This document shows, piece by piece, positions 1 through 45,206 of a stretch of 45,206 nucleotides of DNA (the stretch's first letter is position 1; each line of letters opens with the position of its first letter). Made by a program: the position numbers and the translations under genes. The stretch lies in sequence record NC_031081.1. One strand, written 5' to 3'. The notes under the pieces are model-generated. The model did no database searches. It was given only the letters and a program-made list of their open reading frames with translations, and was not told the DNA's origin. The DNA is from Escherichia phage Envy.

Positions 1-127
1 GCGCTGGGCTTTATCCTGCATTGTGTGCAAGGCGTGTTAATGGTGGCATGGATGATTAGACATCCGACCCGCTGGCTGGATGACGGCTATAGCGAAGCTG
101 CCGTCGATTGGGTGGAGAAGAACATCA
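1..127. repeat. terminal direct repeat of the window, identical to 45080..45206; circular or terminally redundant genome, unit about 45079 bp
   Basis: first 127 bases read identically to last 127 bases. Confidence 0.9.
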
Positions 128-4188: not shown

Positions 4189-4463
4189 CACCAGAAGGCA
4201 AGGTGCAGCGTCACCTTATGAAACGGGTTAAAGAGGTTGGCGGATTCTGCCGAAAACTGGCATGGGAGGGGCGCGCAGGTGCGCCCGACCTGATTATTAT
4301 CATCAACGGCATAATAGTGTTCGTCGAAGTGAAGCGCCCAGGCGGAAAACCGAAGCCGCACCAGGTACGTGAACATGAGCGAATGGCCCGCCGCGGTGCT
4401 GACGTTCGCGTTATCGACAACATATCCGACTGCGATTTATTGGTTGCTGAATTGGTCGCATAG
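4185..4463 (+). CDS. VRR-NUC domain nuclease
   Basis: GAPDLIIIINGIIVFVEVKRPGGKPKPHQ matches VRR-NUC pattern; ATGA overlap with HNH stop. Confidence 0.7.
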   Translation: MTPEGKVQRHLMKRVKEVGGFCRKLAWEGRAGAPDLIIIINGIIVFVEVKRPGGKPKPHQVREHERMARRGADVRVIDNISDCDLLVAELVA

Positions 4464-4503
4464 CGGTATAGTGTGCCGGTTAGCCATATCGAGGATTTTA
4501 GAG

Positions 4504-7377: not shown

Positions 7378-7385
7378 TAAATTGG

Positions 7386-7414
7386 TTGCAGTACGGGATT
7401 GGTTGCATTATATT
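7386..7414 (+). promoter_or_regulatory. sigma70-like promoter (TTGCAG-17-TATATT) with two ATTGGTTGCA direct repeats
   Basis: hexamers and spacing upstream of 7461 CDS. Confidence 0.45.
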
Positions 7415-7415
7415 G

Positions 7416-7443
7416 AGGGTGTTCCGAAGGGAACGCCCTTTTT
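7416..7443 (+). terminator. terminator-like hairpin ending the upstream operon
   Basis: AGGGTGTTCC-gaa-GGGAACGCCCT then TTTTAAT. Confidence 0.45.
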
Positions 7444-7460
7444 AATATGAGGATTTGACA

Positions 7461-8838: not shown

Positions 8839-9350
8839 AATTACTGATTTGCGATTTGGATGGCGTTATTAACGGTTCAAGCGATGCGCGTGCCGACCTG
8901 GTTCCGGGCATAAAAACAAAATCCACCTTTTGGGCGAAGTGGCACAAAGCGCATATACGCGAAGATCTGAACATGGATATGCTGCCGCTGCTGACCATGT
9001 ACAAAGAGCAAGGCTTCGAGATCGCGTATCTGACCAACCGGCAGCGAGAATGCTGGGAGACTACCGTCGAGCAATTGGAAGTATTCCCCGTAGGCCGGTT
9101 GTTTATGCGCCACATGCTGGACGATACCCCGCCGCCAGAGTTTAAAGCGTGCGCCGTGTTCAAAATGGTCTGCTATGCGGACGTATCGGAACTGGTCATC
9201 ATTGAAGACTGCCCGAAGAACATCGCGGCCATTCGACGGGCGTGCAGCGATCTGGTCTCGAAAATTTATGCGATAAACGTTGCAAAATTTACTTGCAACC
9301 AACCTATTGGTTGCACTATAGTTAACTCGTCGGGGCGATATGGCCCCTAA
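8835..9350 (+). CDS. HAD-superfamily hydrolase-like protein
   Basis: N-terminal LICDLDGVI (HAD motif I DxDG); 3' end overlaps the next promoter. Confidence 0.55.
   Translation: MKLLICDLDGVINGSSDARADLVPGIKTKSTFWAKWHKAHIREDLNMDMLPLLTMYKEQGFEIAYLTNRQRECWETTVEQLEVFPVGRLFMRHMLDDTPPPEFKACAVFKMVCYADVSELVIIEDCPKNIAAIRRACSDLVSKIYAINVAKFTCNQPIGCTIVNSSGRYGP
9293..9322 (+). promoter_or_regulatory. sigma70-like promoter (TTGCAA-18-TATAGT) overlapping inverted repeat TGCAACCAA-ccta-TTGGTTGCA
   Basis: hexamers plus perfect 9-bp inverted repeat. Confidence 0.45.
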
Positions 9351-12981: not shown

Positions 12982-13002
12982 AGCTAAATCCTCATAAATT
13001 GG

Positions 13003-13030
13003 TTGCAATCCTGGTTGAGCGGTGTAATAC
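13003..13030 (+). promoter_or_regulatory. sigma70-like promoter (TTGCAA-16-TAATAC) for the lipoprotein gene, preceded by ATTGGTTGCA
   Basis: hexamers upstream of AGGAGA RBS and ATG 13062. Confidence 0.45.
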
Positions 13031-23142: not shown

Positions 23143-23205
23143 TATGCAGTCCCCTTTTTTATGCAGTTGCCGATTGACATTGTATCAGCGAATTTAAAAC
23201 AAACC

Positions 23206-23535
23206 TTATTCAGTCTCAGACGAGGGGGGCCATTGACCCCCGTCTAGTCTGAAAGACTGGGCTTTGTCCCGCCTGTCCCGATCGGCTAAACCCCGCGGCA
23301 GCACTGGCGGGGCGGGGGTGCTGTCCCGCTTTGTCCCGCCCCTTGTTTGTCCCGCTTTTTGTCCCGTTTGGTTTATGCAGTAAAACTGAATAGGTATGCG
23401 CTTTTCAGAGGGGTGCCAGATCGGGACGTCCCGCTTGTCCCGCTTTTAGTTTATGCAATAATAGTAAATAAGTATGCAGTTTTTGAGGGGCGGGACAAAA
23501 CGGGACGTCCCGCTTGTCCCGCTTCATTATGCGGG
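23206..23535. repeat. noncoding element copy A: conserved hairpin, GTCCCGC iterons (8 or more), palindrome GGGACGTCCC, three AT-rich TTTATGCA units
   Basis: first ~58 bp and a ~53-bp iteron block identical to copy B at 39428..39625. Confidence 0.8.
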
Positions 23536-29086: not shown

Positions 29087-29116
29087 TTGCAATCCTCGTA
29101 TTGGTTGCACTATATT
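29087..29116 (+). promoter_or_regulatory. sigma70-like promoter (TTGCAA-18-TATATT) followed by operator-like palindrome TTGGT-tgcac-ACCAA (29116-29130)
   Basis: -10 plus leader shares about 23 identical nt with promoter at 39245..39273. Confidence 0.5.
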
Positions 29117-29145
29117 GGTTGCACACCAACAACGAGGACACACAA

Positions 29146-32976: not shown

Positions 32977-34362
32977 TTAGTAGAAGTCTACAGTTGGAAC
33001 AACGGCGATCGGACGAATCACTGGGAACAGGTGCGCAATTGGATAGCCCGCGGCATCGTTCATGTGGTCCACACCGGCGGTTTTATCCGGCTCGCCTTTC
33101 TTCAGGTCGTAGACCTGCTGTTCCAGACATTTCGCTAGTGTAGGGCATTTATCCAGGTTGACAAAATACTGGCGCACGCCCTTCGAGTTGCACATCATCG
33201 TATTCATCGCGATCAATCGGTCTTTCACGGGAGGGTTAACGCTGTCATACTCCACCTCGAAGCCCGCGTCTTCCAGTTGCGCGATATCGGACGACGATGC
33301 GTTGACAGTCTTGCGAGACTTGCCGCTGCTATCCGGGTAAACAACAACACGACCGGCAGCACAATGATCGGGGTATCGCTCCTCGATCGCCTCAATCATA
33401 GCCGGGGTATCAAACAGGTCCACAAATTCATCCACTGCGTGAATCTCGTCGCGGAACTCCTTGTTTTCGGTGATGCGCTGCCGTCTGACGTACACGACCG
33501 CCGCCATTTTCGTGACGTTAAAGTCCATACCGATAATCAGCGTGTCGTCCGGCTGCACTTCTTCGGTGCTGGCGTTCTCCTCGCGGTTGAACATCTTGTA
33601 CACCGCGCCCGACGTAAGGTTAACAAACAGGCCGTTCAGGTACGCATCAATCAGGTTAGCCGGGTACTGACTGCGCAGCGTGTCGATAAAGTCTGCCGGT
33701 AGATGGTGGTTGTCGGTGGTCTTCGCCCGGATCAGGCGCTTTTGGCTATCCTTCTCCACCTCGAAGATTTGATACATCGCCCGGTAGCCTTCAGGCGTTG
33801 ACACGATGACGAACTGGCGGACGAAGCCCGCACGCAGACGACCGAGCAATTTGTGATACGCCGCCAGCGCGACGTCTTGCTTAGTAGTGTCGAATTCATC
33901 GGCGACAATCCATGCGGCGTTGACCCCGATCAGGCGGGTATAGTTCTCCATTGATTCACAGATAACGCGGGTCCATTTCCCTTTCACCAGCACGCTATAA
34001 ATCTTGTCCTGCTTATTGAACTTCCACCGGAATCCAGCCTCGTCGAATGCCTTCTCCAGTTCCGGATACATGATTTTAACCAGGAGCGGAATAGTCGGTT
34101 CTGTAACGATGCCGTCATGCCCTGGGTTCAGGGTTAAAAGCTGGATGACCTTACGCGCAGCGACCCACGACTTTCCACCGCCGAAGCCGGAACACAGGCC
34201 GAGGATTTTAGTCTTCGTGTCCCGCAGTAGTTCGACCTGGTGCGGCAGGCAATCAGGCTGGTAAAGACGCACCGCCTGCGCAACGCGTGTCGGGCGCGGT
34301 GGTCGGTTGCGCTTTGCAATCGCGCGCTCAAGTGCGCGGTGTTCTGCCGCATAGTTACGCAT
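32977..34362 (-). CDS. terminase large subunit
   Basis: 461 aa; Walker A-like GFGGGKS; C-terminal nuclease-like region; TAATG coupling with TerS. Confidence 0.9.
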   Translation of the reverse strand: MRNYAAEHRALERAIAKRNRPPRPTRVAQAVRLYQPDCLPHQVELLRDTKTKILGLCSGFGGGKSWVAARKVIQLLTLNPGHDGIVTEPTIPLLVKIMYPELEKAFDEAGFRWKFNKQDKIYSVLVKGKWTRVICESMENYTRLIGVNAAWIVADEFDTTKQDVALAAYHKLLGRLRAGFVRQFVIVSTPEGYRAMYQIFEVEKDSQKRLIRAKTTDNHHLPADFIDTLRSQYPANLIDAYLNGLFVNLTSGAVYKMFNREENASTEEVQPDDTLIIGMDFNVTKMAAVVYVRRQRITENKEFRDEIHAVDEFVDLFDTPAMIEAIEERYPDHCAAGRVVVYPDSSGKSRKTVNASSSDIAQLEDAGFEVEYDSVNPPVKDRLIAMNTMMCNSKGVRQYFVNLDKCPTLAKCLEQQVYDLKKGEPDKTAGVDHMNDAAGYPIAHLFPVIRPIAVVPTVDFY

Positions 34363-34913
34363 TATTCACCCTGGCCTTTACCGGTAGGTTCGACAACGAC
34401 GTCGCCGTTATCATCTTCGTCGTCATCCAGCGGTACATCGTCGCGGACGCCGTGGTTTGCTTTAAGCAGGAACGTAGCGAAGCCCGCCGCGATGGTTACG
34501 CCGCCAGCTTCCATCAGGAAAGTTTTCTGCAACTCCATTGCGTCCGCCATCGCCTCGGCAAACTCCTCATGCGCACGCGCCCAGCGATACAAGCAAGCTA
34601 CGCCCACGCCGATTTCAGCGGCAAATCGGCCGAAGGTTGGCATTTTGTTCCGGGGGATTACTTGCGCAGCGCCTTTATCGGAGTAGTTGACCTGCCATGC
34701 GTCGGCGTCGGCAAAATAGCGGCGAAGCTGGTCGCAGTAAACGGATCGGTAGTCAGTAGGGCGTCCACATTTGCCGCCTTTACGGCGCTTTCCGTACTCG
34801 ATTTCAGGTCCGAGATTGGTGTGCTCGGTTTGCTCGCCTGGTTTACGGCGAGGGGTTACTGCTACTCGTCCGTCCAGTTTGGCGCGTCGGCCCTTAACTT
34901 TAATTTCTGCCAT
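34362..34913 (-). CDS. terminase small subunit
   Basis: about 183 aa from internal ATG (MAEIKV...); KMPTFGRFAAEIGVGVACLYRWARAH helix-turn-helix typical of TerS; acidic tail. Confidence 0.6.
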   Translation of the reverse strand: MAEIKVKGRRAKLDGRVAVTPRRKPGEQTEHTNLGPEIEYGKRRKGGKCGRPTDYRSVYCDQLRRYFADADAWQVNYSDKGAAQVIPRNKMPTFGRFAAEIGVGVACLYRWARAHEEFAEAMADAMELQKTFLMEAGGVTIAAGFATFLLKANHGVRDDVPLDDDEDDNGDVVVEPTGKGQGE

Positions 34914-37183: not shown

Positions 37184-37470
37184 TTTGCGCCCCCCGGAAG
37201 TCGGAACGACTCAATAGTCTCCCTGATCCGGGCGGCTATTGGCATCCAGAAGATTGCAGTTACGAAGCCCAAACCGGCGACAGTGCGCTCGCCAGATAAG
37301 CCGGCCCACTCGGCGATAGCTGGCGCACCAAATATGGCACACAGGAAGCCAACTACGATATATAAAACGAAGTTTAGCGGCCCTTTCGTAGCCTCGCCAT
37401 GAATGCGTGCGCCTACGAAGCCGCCAGCCAGACACGCAAGGGCGAATAACCACTCGTTTAGCTTATCCAT
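37180..37470 (-). CDS. holin-like membrane protein
   Basis: 96 aa with 2-3 hydrophobic helices; ATGA overlap with next gene. Confidence 0.5.
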   Translation of the reverse strand: MDKLNEWLFALACLAGGFVGARIHGEATKGPLNFVLYIVVGFLCAIFGAPAIAEWAGLSGERTVAGLGFVTAIFWMPIAARIRETIESFRLPGGAK

Positions 37471-38635: not shown

Positions 38636-38901
38636 TTGCTCAGTCTCTTGTGTTTGCCAACCTGCGCAACGATTGGCTTACGGCGTAATGTAATACGGAT
38701 GCCGATTGGTTGCAATGATGTTTTCACCGGCAGTCCGTGTTCGTTCATGAACTGGTGCAGCATTTTGGTCTGCGTCAGCGGCTTGACGTCATCCCGATAG
38801 CTCCAGAACACAGAATCACCCTCAATCGCATTCTGCGCCCATAAACGGATGCTATGCAGGGGAATATACCAGGATAACCATTTAGCGCGTCTACGTGCCA
38901 T
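38632..38901 (-). CDS. hypothetical protein (89 aa)
   Basis: track ORF in coupled gene chain. Confidence 0.5.
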   Translation of the reverse strand: MARRRAKWLSWYIPLHSIRLWAQNAIEGDSVFWSYRDDVKPLTQTKMLHQFMNEHGLPVKTSLQPIGIRITLRRKPIVAQVGKHKRLSK

Positions 38902-38910
38902 TTTATCCCC

Positions 38911-39216
38911 TTATTTCGCAAGTAAGGCGTGTAGCTCACGCTGAGCCGTGATGCGAGCGATGTTAGTCACTGCCGTCTCTCCGATGCCAAACCGGTACGC
39001 AAGACGCTCACGGGCGAATTTCATCGCATACTCGCAGATTGCCACACGCAATGGTTCCAGTTCATCCAGGCTGACGCCCATGTTGTCGAACGCTGCAAAG
39101 ATTGCCTGCTGCGCGAACATTACAGCCTGGCGTGCGTGGTCGGCGTTGCCGTTTGTGTGCTTCGCTTCATAGAGCGCTGCGACCGCTGATGTGTAATTCC
39201 AGATTAATGCTTTCAT
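38911..39216 (-). CDS. hypothetical protein (101 aa)
   Basis: GAGGA RBS; downstream of promoter 39245..39273. Confidence 0.55.
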   Translation of the reverse strand: MKALIWNYTSAVAALYEAKHTNGNADHARQAVMFAQQAIFAAFDNMGVSLDELEPLRVAICEYAMKFARERLAYRFGIGETAVTNIARITAQRELHALLAK

Positions 39217-39244
39217 CGTTCAGTCCTCTTGTTGGTGTGCAACC

Positions 39245-39273
39245 AATATAGCAGGGCGCCAGGCAGGGTGCAA
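39245..39273 (-). promoter_or_regulatory. sigma70-like promoter (TTGCAC-17-TATATT) with palindrome TTGGT-N5-ACCAA at 39232-39246
   Basis: -10 and leader near-identical to promoter at 29087..29116. Confidence 0.5.
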
Positions 39274-39427
39274 CCAATATTAATCACGCGCATGAAAAAG
39301 TTGATCGCTATCTGCTGTGACTGCAAACCGCATTTTCACTCAGCATAATACAACCTGCATTGGTTGCCTAGTTCATCGACGACCGCACTTAGCATCATGC
39401 TGCCGTGTATTTTGCAATCCCCGGATT

Positions 39428-39625
39428 TTATTCAGTCTCAGACGAGGGGGGCCATTGACCCCCGTCTAGTCTGAAAGACTGGGGTGCTGTCCCGCTGTCC
39501 CGCTCCTCTGGAAGCCGCGCCATCCGTGGCGGGACGGGGGTGCTGTCCCGCTTTGTCCCGCCCCTTGTTTGTCCCGCTTTTTGTCCCGCTTACTTTATGC
39601 AATAAAACTGCATAACTATTCACTA
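39428..39625. repeat. noncoding element copy B: same hairpin, GTCCCGC iterons and TTTATGCA AT-rich unit as copy A
   Basis: identical ~58-bp hairpin module and ~53-bp iteron block at same relative spacing (108 bp). Confidence 0.8.
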
Positions 39626-39673
39626 TATTCACACTACACGGCAACCAATACGACCAGATAAAAACACTCAAAA

Positions 39674-39755
39674 TGGCGACCAATGCGCGCAAATTTTAAT
39701 CGTCTAGCGATATGGGAATCCCCATATTGGCGACCAATGCGCGCAAATTTTAATC
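39674..39755. repeat. two 28-bp direct repeats (TGGCGACCAATGCGCGCAAATTTTAATC) flanking palindrome ATATGGG-aatc-CCCATAT; second copy overlaps primase stop
   Basis: perfect direct repeat, period about 54 bp. Confidence 0.7.
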
Positions 39756-42014
39756 TTTTAAGTCGTCATCGGTCGCCGAAAGCGTGATGGGTATCTTCGT
39801 TTTGATGACGATATTCGACGACCCATAGATGGCCCCGGTGTGCGGATCGGTATAAAAACCGAGCACGCCGCGCTCGACCATATCGTCAATTGCCTTCGTC
39901 GATGTGCCACCTTTCGCAAGCCCAGCCTGGCGGACAATTGCCGATTTGCTGAATCCGGTATGGTCCGGGTTATCTTCCATCAGTTTTTCCAGCGCTGCAT
40001 AAAGCACTTTCTCTTTTTCGTTGCGCGGTCCTGCGGCGTTCTCTTCCTTAACTGCGGCCTTGCCAGCGGCCTTTGCCTGCTCAATGGCGAACGGTGCCAG
40101 GGCGACCGGTACGAGGTAAAGAGTCTCGTCGCGTGGCGTGGAGGCAATCGGCTTGACGTCCCATCCGGCAACCACGTCGCCGAAGTCTGGCCCGGTGCTG
40201 GTGGACTGGTGCGCCTCGAACGCTTCTGACTTGCGGAGATCCACCTTCACCTTGCACTTGAGCAGGACGAAGCCACGCGGCGCTTGCTTGATGCCGTTAC
40301 GTGCTTTTTCGTGATACAGGTTCAATTGGCCTGGCTGGTTGTCGTCCGGCTGTTCAAGGAAGAAAGCAGAATCGACAGCACCATGAAGCGCGCCGGATCC
40401 GCGTGGCGTTCGGCTTCCGTTTGCACCCTTAGCCGGGTGGTGGATGACGCCCGCACTGCCACCTGTATTTTCCGCGATGGCCTTCAGCGCTTTGACCACT
40501 TCGCCCATATCGCTGGCGTTGTTCTCGTCGAACGGTTTTGCATCGGCGGACCGCAGCGCAACAGTCTGGTTGAGTGAGTCGAACGCCACCAGGCCAACCG
40601 GCTCGCCGTTAGCGGTGCGGTTGATGAAGCTGATAACTTCACGCAAGCCGGATTTGCTGGTGATATCCCAGCCTCGTGATTGCAGATCGATAATGTGCAG
40701 CTTGTCCAGGTCGTGCTCATATTTAATCTGCAATGCTTCCTTACGCTGGTTAGAGGCTTCGCCACCTTCCGCGTCGAAATAGAAGCAATGAGACTGGACG
40801 ACCTTCGCACCGCCGAACGGAATACCGGCGGCAACCGCGCCCATTTGGCCCAGCACATAGAACGATTTACCGATGTTCGACTCGCCCGCCATATACCAGG
40901 TCGATTTAAAGTTAATCAACCCCTCGATGATCGGGTCGTGCTTACTGAACAGCGCAACCGGCTCGTTGTCCAGGTCTGCATCAGTACACACGCCGTACTC
41001 GTCGCCGTCTCCGACCGCATCAACGATATGTTCATAGCACGATTCCACTTCCTCATCGTCCAGTCCCGGAAGGATGGCGGCGATTTGCTTACGTGACATG
41101 TTGTGCGGCTCGACGTTCAGGTGGTCCGGGATCCCGATAAGACGTAGCGCCAGGTGCTGGTGTCTGTTCAGTTCCGAGCAACACTCGTTGCCGGTGTGCA
41201 TACACTTGAAACGGATCTCGCCATCCTTGACCATGATAGCCGTCGACCCTTCGCCGCTGTGCAGATGTTCGTTCGGGCACGGCACTTCATAACCGCGACC
41301 GGAAGATAACTCATCGAATCCTGCCTGGAAGCACCAGTCCAGAATGCCGTCTGCCACTGCGTCGTCGCCCTGGGTAAGCTCGCGGCGTACTTCCTCCTTC
41401 TCCACGCCCAACTTATCCGCCAGGCGAAGCAGACGACGGACGCGGGCACGCTTGCCGTAGTGGCACTTAATAACAGACTGCTGGTGTGGCAGGTACATCA
41501 GGCGGTTTGTGTCTTTCGTGCAATCGTCGAAGTCCACATCTGACAGACCAAGTTGGTGTAATAGCGCATACTGGACACGGCCCAGGTCTTCAGCCGGTAC
41601 AGGCTTGTCCGTGAGTACCAGGAATCGAGCGCAACGCGTGCCGCCTTTCAGCGGGTGGCGGTCGCCGGTTGTGGTGTGAAATACATGTTCCAGTCCCGCG
41701 TCGATGAACGCCTTACGGCAGCGGCGCAGGGTGCGGGTGTCGGTACGGTCAATATCGAAGAACAGGATCGAGCGGTCCACTGCACTGGTCTTGCGGCGCA
41801 AGCCGTCACTGGTATACGCCACGATACCATCGGCCTTACGCTTGCGGCGCGCATACTCGGCTTTATCTTCCGTTTTGTTGATATGCACCGAGGAGATTTC
41901 TTTCGCATCATTGATAAATTCGAAAAACTCTTCGGTAGTCATCTGGAAGTTTTCCGCCCTGGCTTTTTCGCCTTTTTTAGCGGGTCGTGTTACAGCGAAT
42001 TTAATCAAGCTCAT
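39750..42014 (-). CDS. DNA primase-helicase (prim-pol-like N-terminus, RecA/DnaB-like ATPase C-terminal half)
   Basis: 754 aa; LFFDIDRTD acidic motif; Cys/His cluster; Walker A GESNIGKS. Confidence 0.75.
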   Translation of the reverse strand: MSLIKFAVTRPAKKGEKARAENFQMTTEEFFEFINDAKEISSVHINKTEDKAEYARRKRKADGIVAYTSDGLRRKTSAVDRSILFFDIDRTDTRTLRRCRKAFIDAGLEHVFHTTTGDRHPLKGGTRCARFLVLTDKPVPAEDLGRVQYALLHQLGLSDVDFDDCTKDTNRLMYLPHQQSVIKCHYGKRARVRRLLRLADKLGVEKEEVRRELTQGDDAVADGILDWCFQAGFDELSSGRGYEVPCPNEHLHSGEGSTAIMVKDGEIRFKCMHTGNECCSELNRHQHLALRLIGIPDHLNVEPHNMSRKQIAAILPGLDDEEVESCYEHIVDAVGDGDEYGVCTDADLDNEPVALFSKHDPIIEGLINFKSTWYMAGESNIGKSFYVLGQMGAVAAGIPFGGAKVVQSHCFYFDAEGGEASNQRKEALQIKYEHDLDKLHIIDLQSRGWDITSKSGLREVISFINRTANGEPVGLVAFDSLNQTVALRSADAKPFDENNASDMGEVVKALKAIAENTGGSAGVIHHPAKGANGSRTPRGSGALHGAVDSAFFLEQPDDNQPGQLNLYHEKARNGIKQAPRGFVLLKCKVKVDLRKSEAFEAHQSTSTGPDFGDVVAGWDVKPIASTPRDETLYLVPVALAPFAIEQAKAAGKAAVKEENAAGPRNEKEKVLYAALEKLMEDNPDHTGFSKSAIVRQAGLAKGGTSTKAIDDMVERGVLGFYTDPHTGAIYGSSNIVIKTKIPITLSATDDDLKD

Positions 42015-42024
42015 TGCCGTTGCC

Positions 42025-42354
42025 TTACTTTGAAGTTTTATTATTGCGTACCCAGGAGCGCACTGTGCTCTGATTAATTCCGGTCAACTCGGCAATCATC
42101 GCCCAGGATTTACCTTCCTCACGTAGACGGATAACCTGTTTTTTGTATTCTTCCATTTCTTCATTGTGTTTTTGCAGCTTGCTTGCTGCCGTGCCGTTGA
42201 GCAATTCCAGCTTCGCGCGCAATTCTTTTTCGGTAAGTCGCAGACGTTCGATTTCAAATAGCACCGCACCCACGGCATCGGTATACGCCCAGGACCGGCT
42301 AGTCTCACTGCAAACAGTCTTCGTTAACATTTCGATTGCGTCGTTTACATTCAT
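42025..42354 (-). CDS. HTH DNA-binding protein, putative early regulator
   Basis: 109 aa; C-terminal HTH SWAMIAELTGINQSTVRSWV; first gene of minus operon. Confidence 0.6.
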   Translation of the reverse strand: MNVNDAIEMLTKTVCSETSRSWAYTDAVGAVLFEIERLRLTEKELRAKLELLNGTAASKLQKHNEEMEEYKKQVIRLREEGKSWAMIAELTGINQSTVRSWVRNNKTSK

Positions 42355-42531: not shown

Positions 42532-42560
42532 TTGACTCCCTTCTGCAACCAATCTAATAT
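42532..42560 (+). promoter_or_regulatory. strong sigma70-like promoter (TTGACT-17-TAATAT) for plus-strand early genes
   Basis: near-consensus hexamers, 17-nt spacer containing TGCAACCAAT. Confidence 0.55.
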
Positions 42561-45045: not shown

Positions 45046-45206
45046 AGTATTCGCAATCTTATTGATGTTTGTTATCGGCGCGCTGGGCTTTATCCTGCAT
45101 TGTGTGCAAGGCGTGTTAATGGTGGCATGGATGATTAGACATCCGACCCGCTGGCTGGATGACGGCTATAGCGAAGCTGCCGTCGATTGGGTGGAGAAGA
45201 ACATCA
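45038..45206 (+). CDS. small membrane protein, 5' part (continues at 1..201 through terminal repeat)
   Basis: ATG overlapping nuclease stop; hydrophobic N-terminus. Confidence 0.45.
   Translation, partial: MNKVFAILLMFVIGALGFILHCVQGVLMVAWMIRHPTRWLDDGYSEAAVDWVEKNI
45080..45206. repeat. terminal direct repeat, identical to 1..127
   Basis: identical sequence at both window ends. Confidence 0.9.

Follow-up and report, generated by a model that had tools for sequence, protein, structure and literature searches.

At the 3' end of the primase-helicase gene of this phage, long direct repeats flank a palindrome, and the question that the locus raises is whether this arrangement is a protein-binding site, possibly an origin or a packaging-related site. 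The window, that is, the whole stretch of 45,206 nucleotides that was analysed, matches the record of Escherichia phage Sloth (KX534339.1), a virulent siphovirus of the genus Dhillonvirus, in a rotated form. Its termini carry an exact 127-nt duplication (window 1-127 equals 45080-45206), which is also present in the GenBank record. This duplication is an assembly overlap of the kind that a circular assembly with k = 127 leaves, and the true genome length is 45,079 bp. Because of the duplication, the record position is the window position plus 7643 below window position 37437 and the window position minus 37436 from there on. We found 157 related phage records. The primase-helicase gene end and its downstream region were aligned in 16 relatives, and the copy state was scored in 60 of 153 GenBank records, sampled at even spacing. 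More distant comparisons were made with phage CHD5UKE2 (primase 87% identical), with the metagenomic relatives L447, L449 and L451 (66-68%) and with the Guernseyvirinae phages TS33 and VSiP (44%). A literature search on Dhillonvirus promoters and on the box, iteron or palindrome sequences described below found nothing relevant, and Rfam covariance models run over the whole window gave no family at gathering score.

The sequence TGGCGACCAATGCGCGCAAATTTTAATC occurs exactly twice, at 39674-39701 and 39728-39755, 54 bp from start to start, as the preliminary description had stated, and is expected zero times in shuffled sequences even with three mismatches allowed. Since the primase-helicase gene (39750..42014; 754 aa) is on the minus strand, both repeats are downstream of the gene and copy 2 (39728..39755, minus strand) is the gene-proximal one. 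The described overlap of this copy with the primase stop is also correct: the TAA (TTA on the plus strand, 39750-39752) and the last codon lie inside it, at 39750-39755. The gene-distal copy (39674..39701, minus strand) contains a non-coding remnant of the gene end (GATTAA) and is the counterpart of the sole copy in single-copy relatives. Each copy carries one box of the consensus ATTGGTYGC on the minus strand, box A (ATTGGTCGC, 39730-39738) in the gene-proximal copy and box B (ATTGGTCGC, 39676-39684) in the gene-distal copy. A degenerate third copy of the core, box C (ATTGGTTGC, 39641..39649, minus strand), is kept in all Dhillonvirus relatives and lies 13 nt upstream of a TATAGT sequence and an A+T-rich hairpin. 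Each repeat also holds an 8-bp palindrome, TGCGCGCA. Between the repeats, ATATGGGAATCCCCATAT is present at 39710-39727 as described, but it is not a perfect palindrome, having 7-bp arms (ATATGGG/CCCATAT) around a 4-nt centre, AATC. The duplicated unit is 32 bp long and comprises the four final codons of the gene with their stop, a further 11 nt and a single ATTGGTYGC box. The palindrome inserted between the units measures 22 bp (39708-39729), and 28 bp is the length of the identical stretch in the window phage only. As the 54 bp equal 18 codons, both stops share one reading frame, to which we attach no meaning.

The repeat pair is a dispensable 54-bp insertion/duplication polymorphism at the primase-helicase 3' end. 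The alignment of 16 relatives reveals a clean 54-bp indel. Two-copy genomes (the window phage, L006, L012, L014, L015, which is Gluttony, and L020) read, in gene orientation, 32 bp, the 22-bp palindrome and the 32 bp again, with 26-31 of the 32 positions identical between copies. In L012 both copies read CTAAAAGACTAA, coding L-K-D-stop, the second being a non-coding remnant. The second copy and the palindrome are both missing from the single-copy genomes L005, L007-L009, L011, L013, L016 and L019, and L010 has also lost the remaining proximal box. In the sampled GenBank records, about 33 had two copies versus about 25 with a single copy. In neighbour-joining trees built from each of the flanks, one-copy and two-copy states are interspersed, and the insertion is missing from both outgroups, L016 and L018 (primase identity 87% and 65%). 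The element therefore arose inside the genus and was then repeatedly lost or moved by recombination; repeated loss is as expected from recombination between the element's own direct repeats.

The exact identity of the copies over 28 bp was found only in the window phage among the records. Over about 960 nt (39200-40160), the window phage differs from its near-twin Gluttony at just three positions, 39678, 39694 and 39728, all within the repeats and all making the copies identical. Thus, the exact 28-bp identity is not conserved and stems from a recent conversion or, less probably, from an artefact of the consensus. The suggestion that the spacing of 54 bp, or five helical turns, and the palindrome are meaningful finds no support, as neither is conserved: about 40% of Dhillonvirus genomes are single-copy without the palindrome, one is boxless, and in more distant relatives the boxes differ in number, spacing and orientation. 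Comparison across relatives, which had been proposed as the check, therefore divides the locus into a repeat pair that is not conserved and a core box that is. Because box number, spacing and orientation are free to vary, the duplication is tolerated and not required. It resembles direct-repeat-mediated indel polymorphisms of phage intergenic regions, in which one repeat unit plus spacer is present or absent, scattered over the tree, with homogenised copies; the spacer here differs in being a non-local 22-bp palindrome common to unrelated phages and KilA-N genes.

The box itself is far from random. The ATTGGTYGC box, searched as GCRACCAAT, occurs 16 times in the genome versus 0.99 expected, and none of 100 shuffles reached 16; with one mismatch allowed the numbers are 27 and 12.5. 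CHD5UKE2 likewise has 16 copies, in syntenic places. Copies of the core are found at 10 or more places in the genome, most of them promoters, and nearly all ATTGGTYGC copies follow the local direction of transcription, 20-60 nt upstream of gene starts. A further perfect ATTGGTTGC box lies at 38705-38713, antisense inside a small leftward CDS, and is found at the same place in CHD5UKE2. Of the original proposal of a protein-binding site, the part that survives is the 9-bp core, which behaves like such a site in being about 16-fold over-represented and syntenic in relatives; the five-turn spacing and the palindrome do not.

Boxes lie in the -35, the spacer or the -10 of seven to eight sigma-70-like promoter arrangements upstream of gene starts, and this is operator geometry. 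In four of them (4439-4472, 7381-7414, 12998-13030 and 39278-39239) the TTGC of the box is the -35. The box ends 1-2 nt before the -10 in the promoters TTGCAA-N18-TATAGT at 9293-9322 and TTGCAA-N18-TATATT at 29087-29116. It does so too in the rightward early promoter TTGACT-N17-TAATAT (42532..42560, plus strand), where an inverted box at 42545-42553 fills the spacer. Boxes overlapping the -10 and +1 (TATATTGGTTGC) are present at 29111-29122 and 39252-39239. The promoter TTGCAC-N17-TATATT of the next leftward gene (39239..39278, minus strand; gene start 39216) is formed or overlapped by two boxes. A generic promoter scan detects three of the box-promoter arrangements, and a further one, at 198-226, has two box-like copies, which lie within 198-240. 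However, the TTGC of the box itself acts as a weak -35, so part of the recurrence could reflect common promoter architecture and not an operator. One of these sites has an unusual neighbourhood: at 7381-7445, two boxes follow a stop codon (7377) and precede a strong intrinsic terminator (7415-7440). TATATT at 7409-7414, the putative -10, abuts the terminator stem, so that a transcript from there would miss the 5' half of the hairpin, and the site looks like an overlapping terminator and promoter.

The boxes at the primase end are set apart from those in promoters. Scanning and manual reading gave no convincing sigma-70-like promoter on either strand at 39640-39760. Boxes A-C read ATTGGTYGCC versus ATTGGTTGCA in the promoter boxes, and this difference, which is conserved in relatives, may reflect two proteins or two affinities. 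The majority of boxes are single or directly oriented, which is unusual for a dimeric Cro-like repressor.

The likeliest candidate for the protein that would bind the box is the 109-aa product of the gene (42025..42354, minus strand) immediately upstream of the primase gene; its C-terminal part is a helix-turn-helix (HTH_23 / Sigma70_r4_2). GenBank labels this gene 'gam' / 'DNA recombination nuclease inhibitor gamma', which is a misannotation; the product is a small HTH protein. Across 17 homologues of the protein, whose N-terminal halves are unrelated, the last 60 residues hardly vary. Boxes or box-like dyads are present at its own promoter and also fill the spacer of the divergent early promoter. 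The three relatives with 66-68% primase identity keep both the HTH and the ATTGGTTGC box and have different iterons, and the Guernseyvirinae have a Cro-type HTH (HTH_3) at the same gene position and a different box. Since the box is constant with the HTH while the iterons change, it appears to be tied to the HTH protein, and neither to the iterons nor to the primase. The evidence for this tie is correlative and comes from sequence comparison of about five lineages. The arrangement is similar to the promoters served by lambda Cro/CI at OR/OL and by phi29 p4 at early/late promoters, where several promoters share a short site lying over the -35, the spacer or the -10. As with Cro/CI-type operators, the box is found in the divergent early promoter region by the putative regulator's gene and is constant where the DNA-binding domain is constant. 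It differs from the operators of small phage HTH proteins in that the sites are mostly single or direct and not dyads, a promoter-less array lies by the origin, the phage is virulent and the binding is a prediction.

The primase-helicase has a RepA-like AAA_25 helicase core (Pfam sees AAA_25 only), and a sequence search of solved structures with it gave no match. Boxes at its stop codon reach well beyond the genus. In L447, L449 and L451, ATTGGTTGC is the commonest 9-mer of the locus. These relatives have boxes in the divergent early promoter and in the promoter after the origin, and two to four around the primase stop, one of them inside the ORF (GAATTGGTTGCC, coding ELVA). In TS33 and VSiP, the primase stop is followed by a related box, ATGTTGGCTGY, then by the shared GAATAGTTATGCA and different G-rich iterons, and more boxes occur at the next promoter. 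In Guernseyvirinae (L085 10800-10880; L086 37080-37170), an inverted box pair brackets the primase stop, one box being inside the ORF (CAGCCAACA, coding QPT) and the other after the stop (GTTGGCTG). As variable boxes occur at the primase stop in all relatives, the conserved feature is a box array where the primase stop meets the origin, and the duplication in the window phage is one way to add a box to it.

Downstream of the stop, a 530-bp non-coding stretch (39217-39749) separates the primase-helicase gene from the next gene. From 39749 to 39217, in gene orientation, it contains boxes A, B and C, the TATAGT, an A+T-rich hairpin, iterons, a G+C-rich hairpin, an inverted box and the two-box promoter. 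The A+T-rich hairpin, TTATGCA-N7-TGCATAA (39595..39615), is inside a trough of 33-38% G+C at 39580-39670. Depending on the relative, its 7-nt loop reads GTTTTAT or ATAAAAC on the gene strand, with no link to the 54-bp insertion. A loop that can read either way suggests inversion through the hairpin, and both orientations are as expected if a hairpin or cruciform forms in vivo. The iteron cluster (39488..39589, minus strand) comprises six direct copies of GCGGGACA in 102 bp plus one inverted copy near 39529-39536; the genome contains 17 copies versus 2.15 expected. The G+C-rich hairpin, AGACGAGGGGGG-CCATTGA-CCCCCGTCT nested in CAGTCT.../...AGACTG (39433..39481), is conserved in relatives with changes in its loop, and in phage CS16 the matching position is annotated as a terminator. 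The inverted box is a single origin-type box, ATTGGTTGCC (39359..39367, plus strand), which is kept in relatives.

The module at 39430-39650 is likely a replication origin, judged from its layout, in which iterons adjoin an A+T-rich region and an initiator/helicase gene. GC skew was of no help as an origin indicator, as it merely tracks the direction of transcription. A second iteron module (23200..23530, minus strand) is located between the tape-measure gene and the upstream tail genes. About 190 bp of it, at 23200-23400 and including the G+C hairpin, are nearly identical to 39430-39600, and it has no ATTGGTYGC boxes. It carries extra GCGGGACA/GTCCCGC units, and the G+C hairpin AGACGGGGGTCAATGGCCCCCCTCGTCT is in both modules. 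Nearly all Dhillonvirus records have two matching places for the iteron module. The iterons differ among the 66-68% relatives, being GCGGGACA, GGTGCCA or GTGTGCCAA. At L449 12520-13090 and L451 2700-3190, GGTGCCA or GTGTGCCAA replaces GCGGGACA, and the layout, the CAGTCT...AGACTG/G+C hairpin and the ATTGGTTGC boxes are kept. A winged-helix-like segment at the primase C-terminus was considered as the iteron reader and was rejected, because L447 and L449 have nearly the same helix and different iterons. The module is similar to the origins of plasmids P1, F, pSC101 and RK2 in having accessory boxes, an A+T-rich unwinding region and clustered 8-bp iterons beside an initiator/helicase gene. Unlike in iteron origins with DnaA boxes, the boxes here are not DnaA boxes and also serve promoters, and the 28-bp repeats are not the iterons. 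Satellite phage P4 has a two-site arrangement, ori and crr, together with the alpha primase-helicase. The second, distant iteron cluster here is reminiscent of crr, an analogy only of layout; the primase-helicase differs from P4 alpha and from plasmid initiators in its RepA-like AAA_25 core, and origin activity is a prediction for the Dhillonviruses.

We favour, with moderate confidence, the reading that the repeat pair is a tolerated 54-bp duplication that adds one operator for the HTH regulator at the primase-origin boundary. The functional content of the duplication would be one extra copy of the box. The box would be the recognition site of a DNA-binding regulator of the phage, of which the 109-aa HTH protein is the likeliest candidate. 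The regulator may bind early and middle promoters within or across their core, in the geometry of an operator, and may also bind the box array between the primase stop and the origin-like module, including the duplicated 28-mers. A bound array could mark or insulate the boundary between the primase unit and the origin, block read-through into the origin, or organise the origin as an accessory element. The accessory role is modelled on the boxes that flank iterons in plasmid origins. This explanation leaves the palindrome unaccounted for.

The palindrome CGATATGGGAATCCCCATATTG (39708..39729) has a perfect form, CGATATGGGAATTCCCATATCG, in relatives. In the window phage its outermost pair is broken by a C>T change at 39728, and the same change extends the repeat. 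Its consensus, CGATATGGG(A/G)AT(T/C)CCCATATCG, is not a local sequence. IMG/VR contains at least 120 matching stretches in about 20 unrelated flank contexts. Among 119 of these matches with full flanks, 43 adjoin hok-like genes in lambdoid prophages, 37 adjoin an intrinsic terminator that precedes ninB, at least 14 are inside KilA-N genes and 3 are in Dhillonviruses. BLAST of two of the lambdoid-prophage contexts against annotated phages gave no match or an uninformative one. In species-representative genomes (596 Gb), at least 80 stretches were found versus about 0.3 expected, in Cyanobacteria, Bacteroidota, Firmicutes, Spirochaetes and Proteobacteria. About half of these are in KilA-N ORFs, where the palindrome codes for DMGIPIS.

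Because the exact-string search had itself selected the string, codon usage was tested separately, on 22 dereplicated KilA-N genes that protein patterns had retrieved. Exactly GAT ATG GGR ATY CCC ATA TCG is used by 15 of them, and synonymous sites vary freely in the DGYINAT and GTWVHP motifs of the same genes. A DIGIPIS variant reads GAT ATC GGA ATT CCG ATA TCG, in which the paired compensatory changes to ATC and CCG restore a perfect palindrome. The frozen synonymous sites together with this variant show selection on the palindrome at the nucleotide level, as a hairpin or as a dyad binding site. It is kept inside KilA-N genes from Cyanobacteria to Enterobacteria, and phages also place non-coding copies downstream of replication genes. 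Its readers may be KilA-N proteins of resident prophages or a host factor; a search of the window phage for a KilA-N gene as partner found none. It resembles the REP/BIME extragenic palindromes as a short stable palindrome at gene 3' ends, beside terminators and in many genomes. It differs from them in being far shorter, in having one fixed sequence across phyla, in being also coding (DMGIPIS) and in having no RAYT-type transposase. We tentatively raise the possibility, to which we give a rather low probability, that the palindrome is an undescribed widespread cis-element, either a hairpin or a site for a dimeric protein, possibly of KilA-N type, and that in the Dhillonviruses it is a functional acquisition beside the origin and not filler.

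It is unlikely, on balance, that the element acts at the level of RNA, with the palindrome and the pairing of the repeat copies forming a 3' stem-loop that stabilises the primase mRNA, or partly terminates or insulates transcription before the origin. Folding energies are compatible with such a role: the minus-strand RNA of 111 nt reaches -35.1 kcal/mol (z = -3.4) in a fold where the 7-bp stem of the palindrome sits atop pairing of GCGCGC and UUGGUCG/CGAUUAA between the copies, and the version of L006 reaches -32.1 kcal/mol (z = -3.05). The frequent position of the same palindrome elsewhere, at gene 3' ends beside intrinsic terminators, and the compensatory G>C / C>G variant in KilA-N genes point in the same direction. 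However, no T-run follows the stem (on the gene strand, the palindrome runs into CGCTAGAC), and a scan found no intrinsic terminator at the repeats. The palindrome alone, on the mRNA strand, is marginally above shuffled stability (z = -1.3), and much of the extended stem is a by-product of TGCGCGCA in each repeat. Moreover, the structure is impossible in the roughly 40% of relatives with one copy.

The origin proposed in the preliminary description is retained in another form, that of a 9-bp core adjoining an origin-like module of A+T-rich hairpin, iterons and initiator-type gene; the 28-bp repeats do not stand as its iterons. Iteron arrays comprise at least three clustered, origin-specific repeats, and here there are two copies with three cores, and the core is dispersed genome-wide. 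That the repeats are true iterons, bound by the primase-helicase or another initiator to start replication, is quite improbable in our estimate. The idea draws on their proximity to the A+T-rich region and to the initiator-type gene, and on the presence of boxes at the primase-origin boundary in every relative, including the Guernseyvirinae. Against it, the box is spread over promoters throughout the genome and not confined to the origin, and it does not change between phages whose primases are down to 66% identical and whose clustered iterons differ in sequence. In addition, the second iteron module is without boxes, and the number of proximal boxes varies from 0 to 4.

We consider it similarly improbable that the locus is a neutral scar, a product of slippage or illegitimate recombination that trapped the palindrome by chance, with boxes near the primase stop being incidental. 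Such a scar would be polymorphic, repeatedly gained and lost and missing in outgroups, as the insertion is; its length would be a multiple of three by chance only, and the identity of the copies in the window phage stems from recent homogenisation. Yet the box core within the insertion is strongly non-random and positionally conserved. Chance is also insufficient to explain the same 22-bp palindrome in about 20 unrelated contexts, given the excess over expectation in 596 Gb noted above.

A pac or cos site, with terminase binding the repeats around the palindrome, is very improbable: a general resemblance to repeat-rich pac sites and several GenBank records that end within a few hundred bp invite the idea, but the terminase genes (about 32977-34913) are about 5 kb away, the element is missing in about 40% of relatives, and the record ends coincide with the approximately 190-bp repeated iteron module, where assemblies break (the CHD5UKE2 record starts and ends inside module II, and the window record has its 127-nt assembly overlap), so the suggested packaging function is not borne out. 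A miniature mobile palindromic element whose insertion yields a 32-bp target-site duplication is just as remote: the anatomy is exactly that of an insert flanked by a direct duplication of its target, and the same 22-bp insert is found in many unrelated genomes, but none of 24 other palindrome contexts has flanking direct repeats above shuffle level (only the two Dhillonvirus contexts have them), about half of the other occurrences are coding sequence in KilA-N genes, and no transposase is associated with the palindrome. CRISPR-type off-target spacer integration was also considered. The E. coli type I-E system has a repeat of about 28 bp and a 33-bp spacer, and the candidate was rejected on size, as here a 32-bp duplication flanks a 22-bp insert.

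In conclusion, the eye-catching repeat at the primase-helicase 3' end is explained as a dispensable polymorphism. The repeat pair itself is ordinary and belongs with known kinds of element, operator boxes and the surroundings of iteron origins. Dhillonviruses are common therapeutic and model coliphages, represented in the BASEL collection and among urinary isolates, and their regulation and origin are uncharacterised. This study provides a concrete regulon candidate, the ATTGGTTGC box with the conserved 109-aa HTH protein, together with a probable two-site iteron origin, and these candidates would be useful for annotating and engineering these phages. The palindrome is the only potentially novel lead, and it could offer a new route to the targets of KilA-N proteins.
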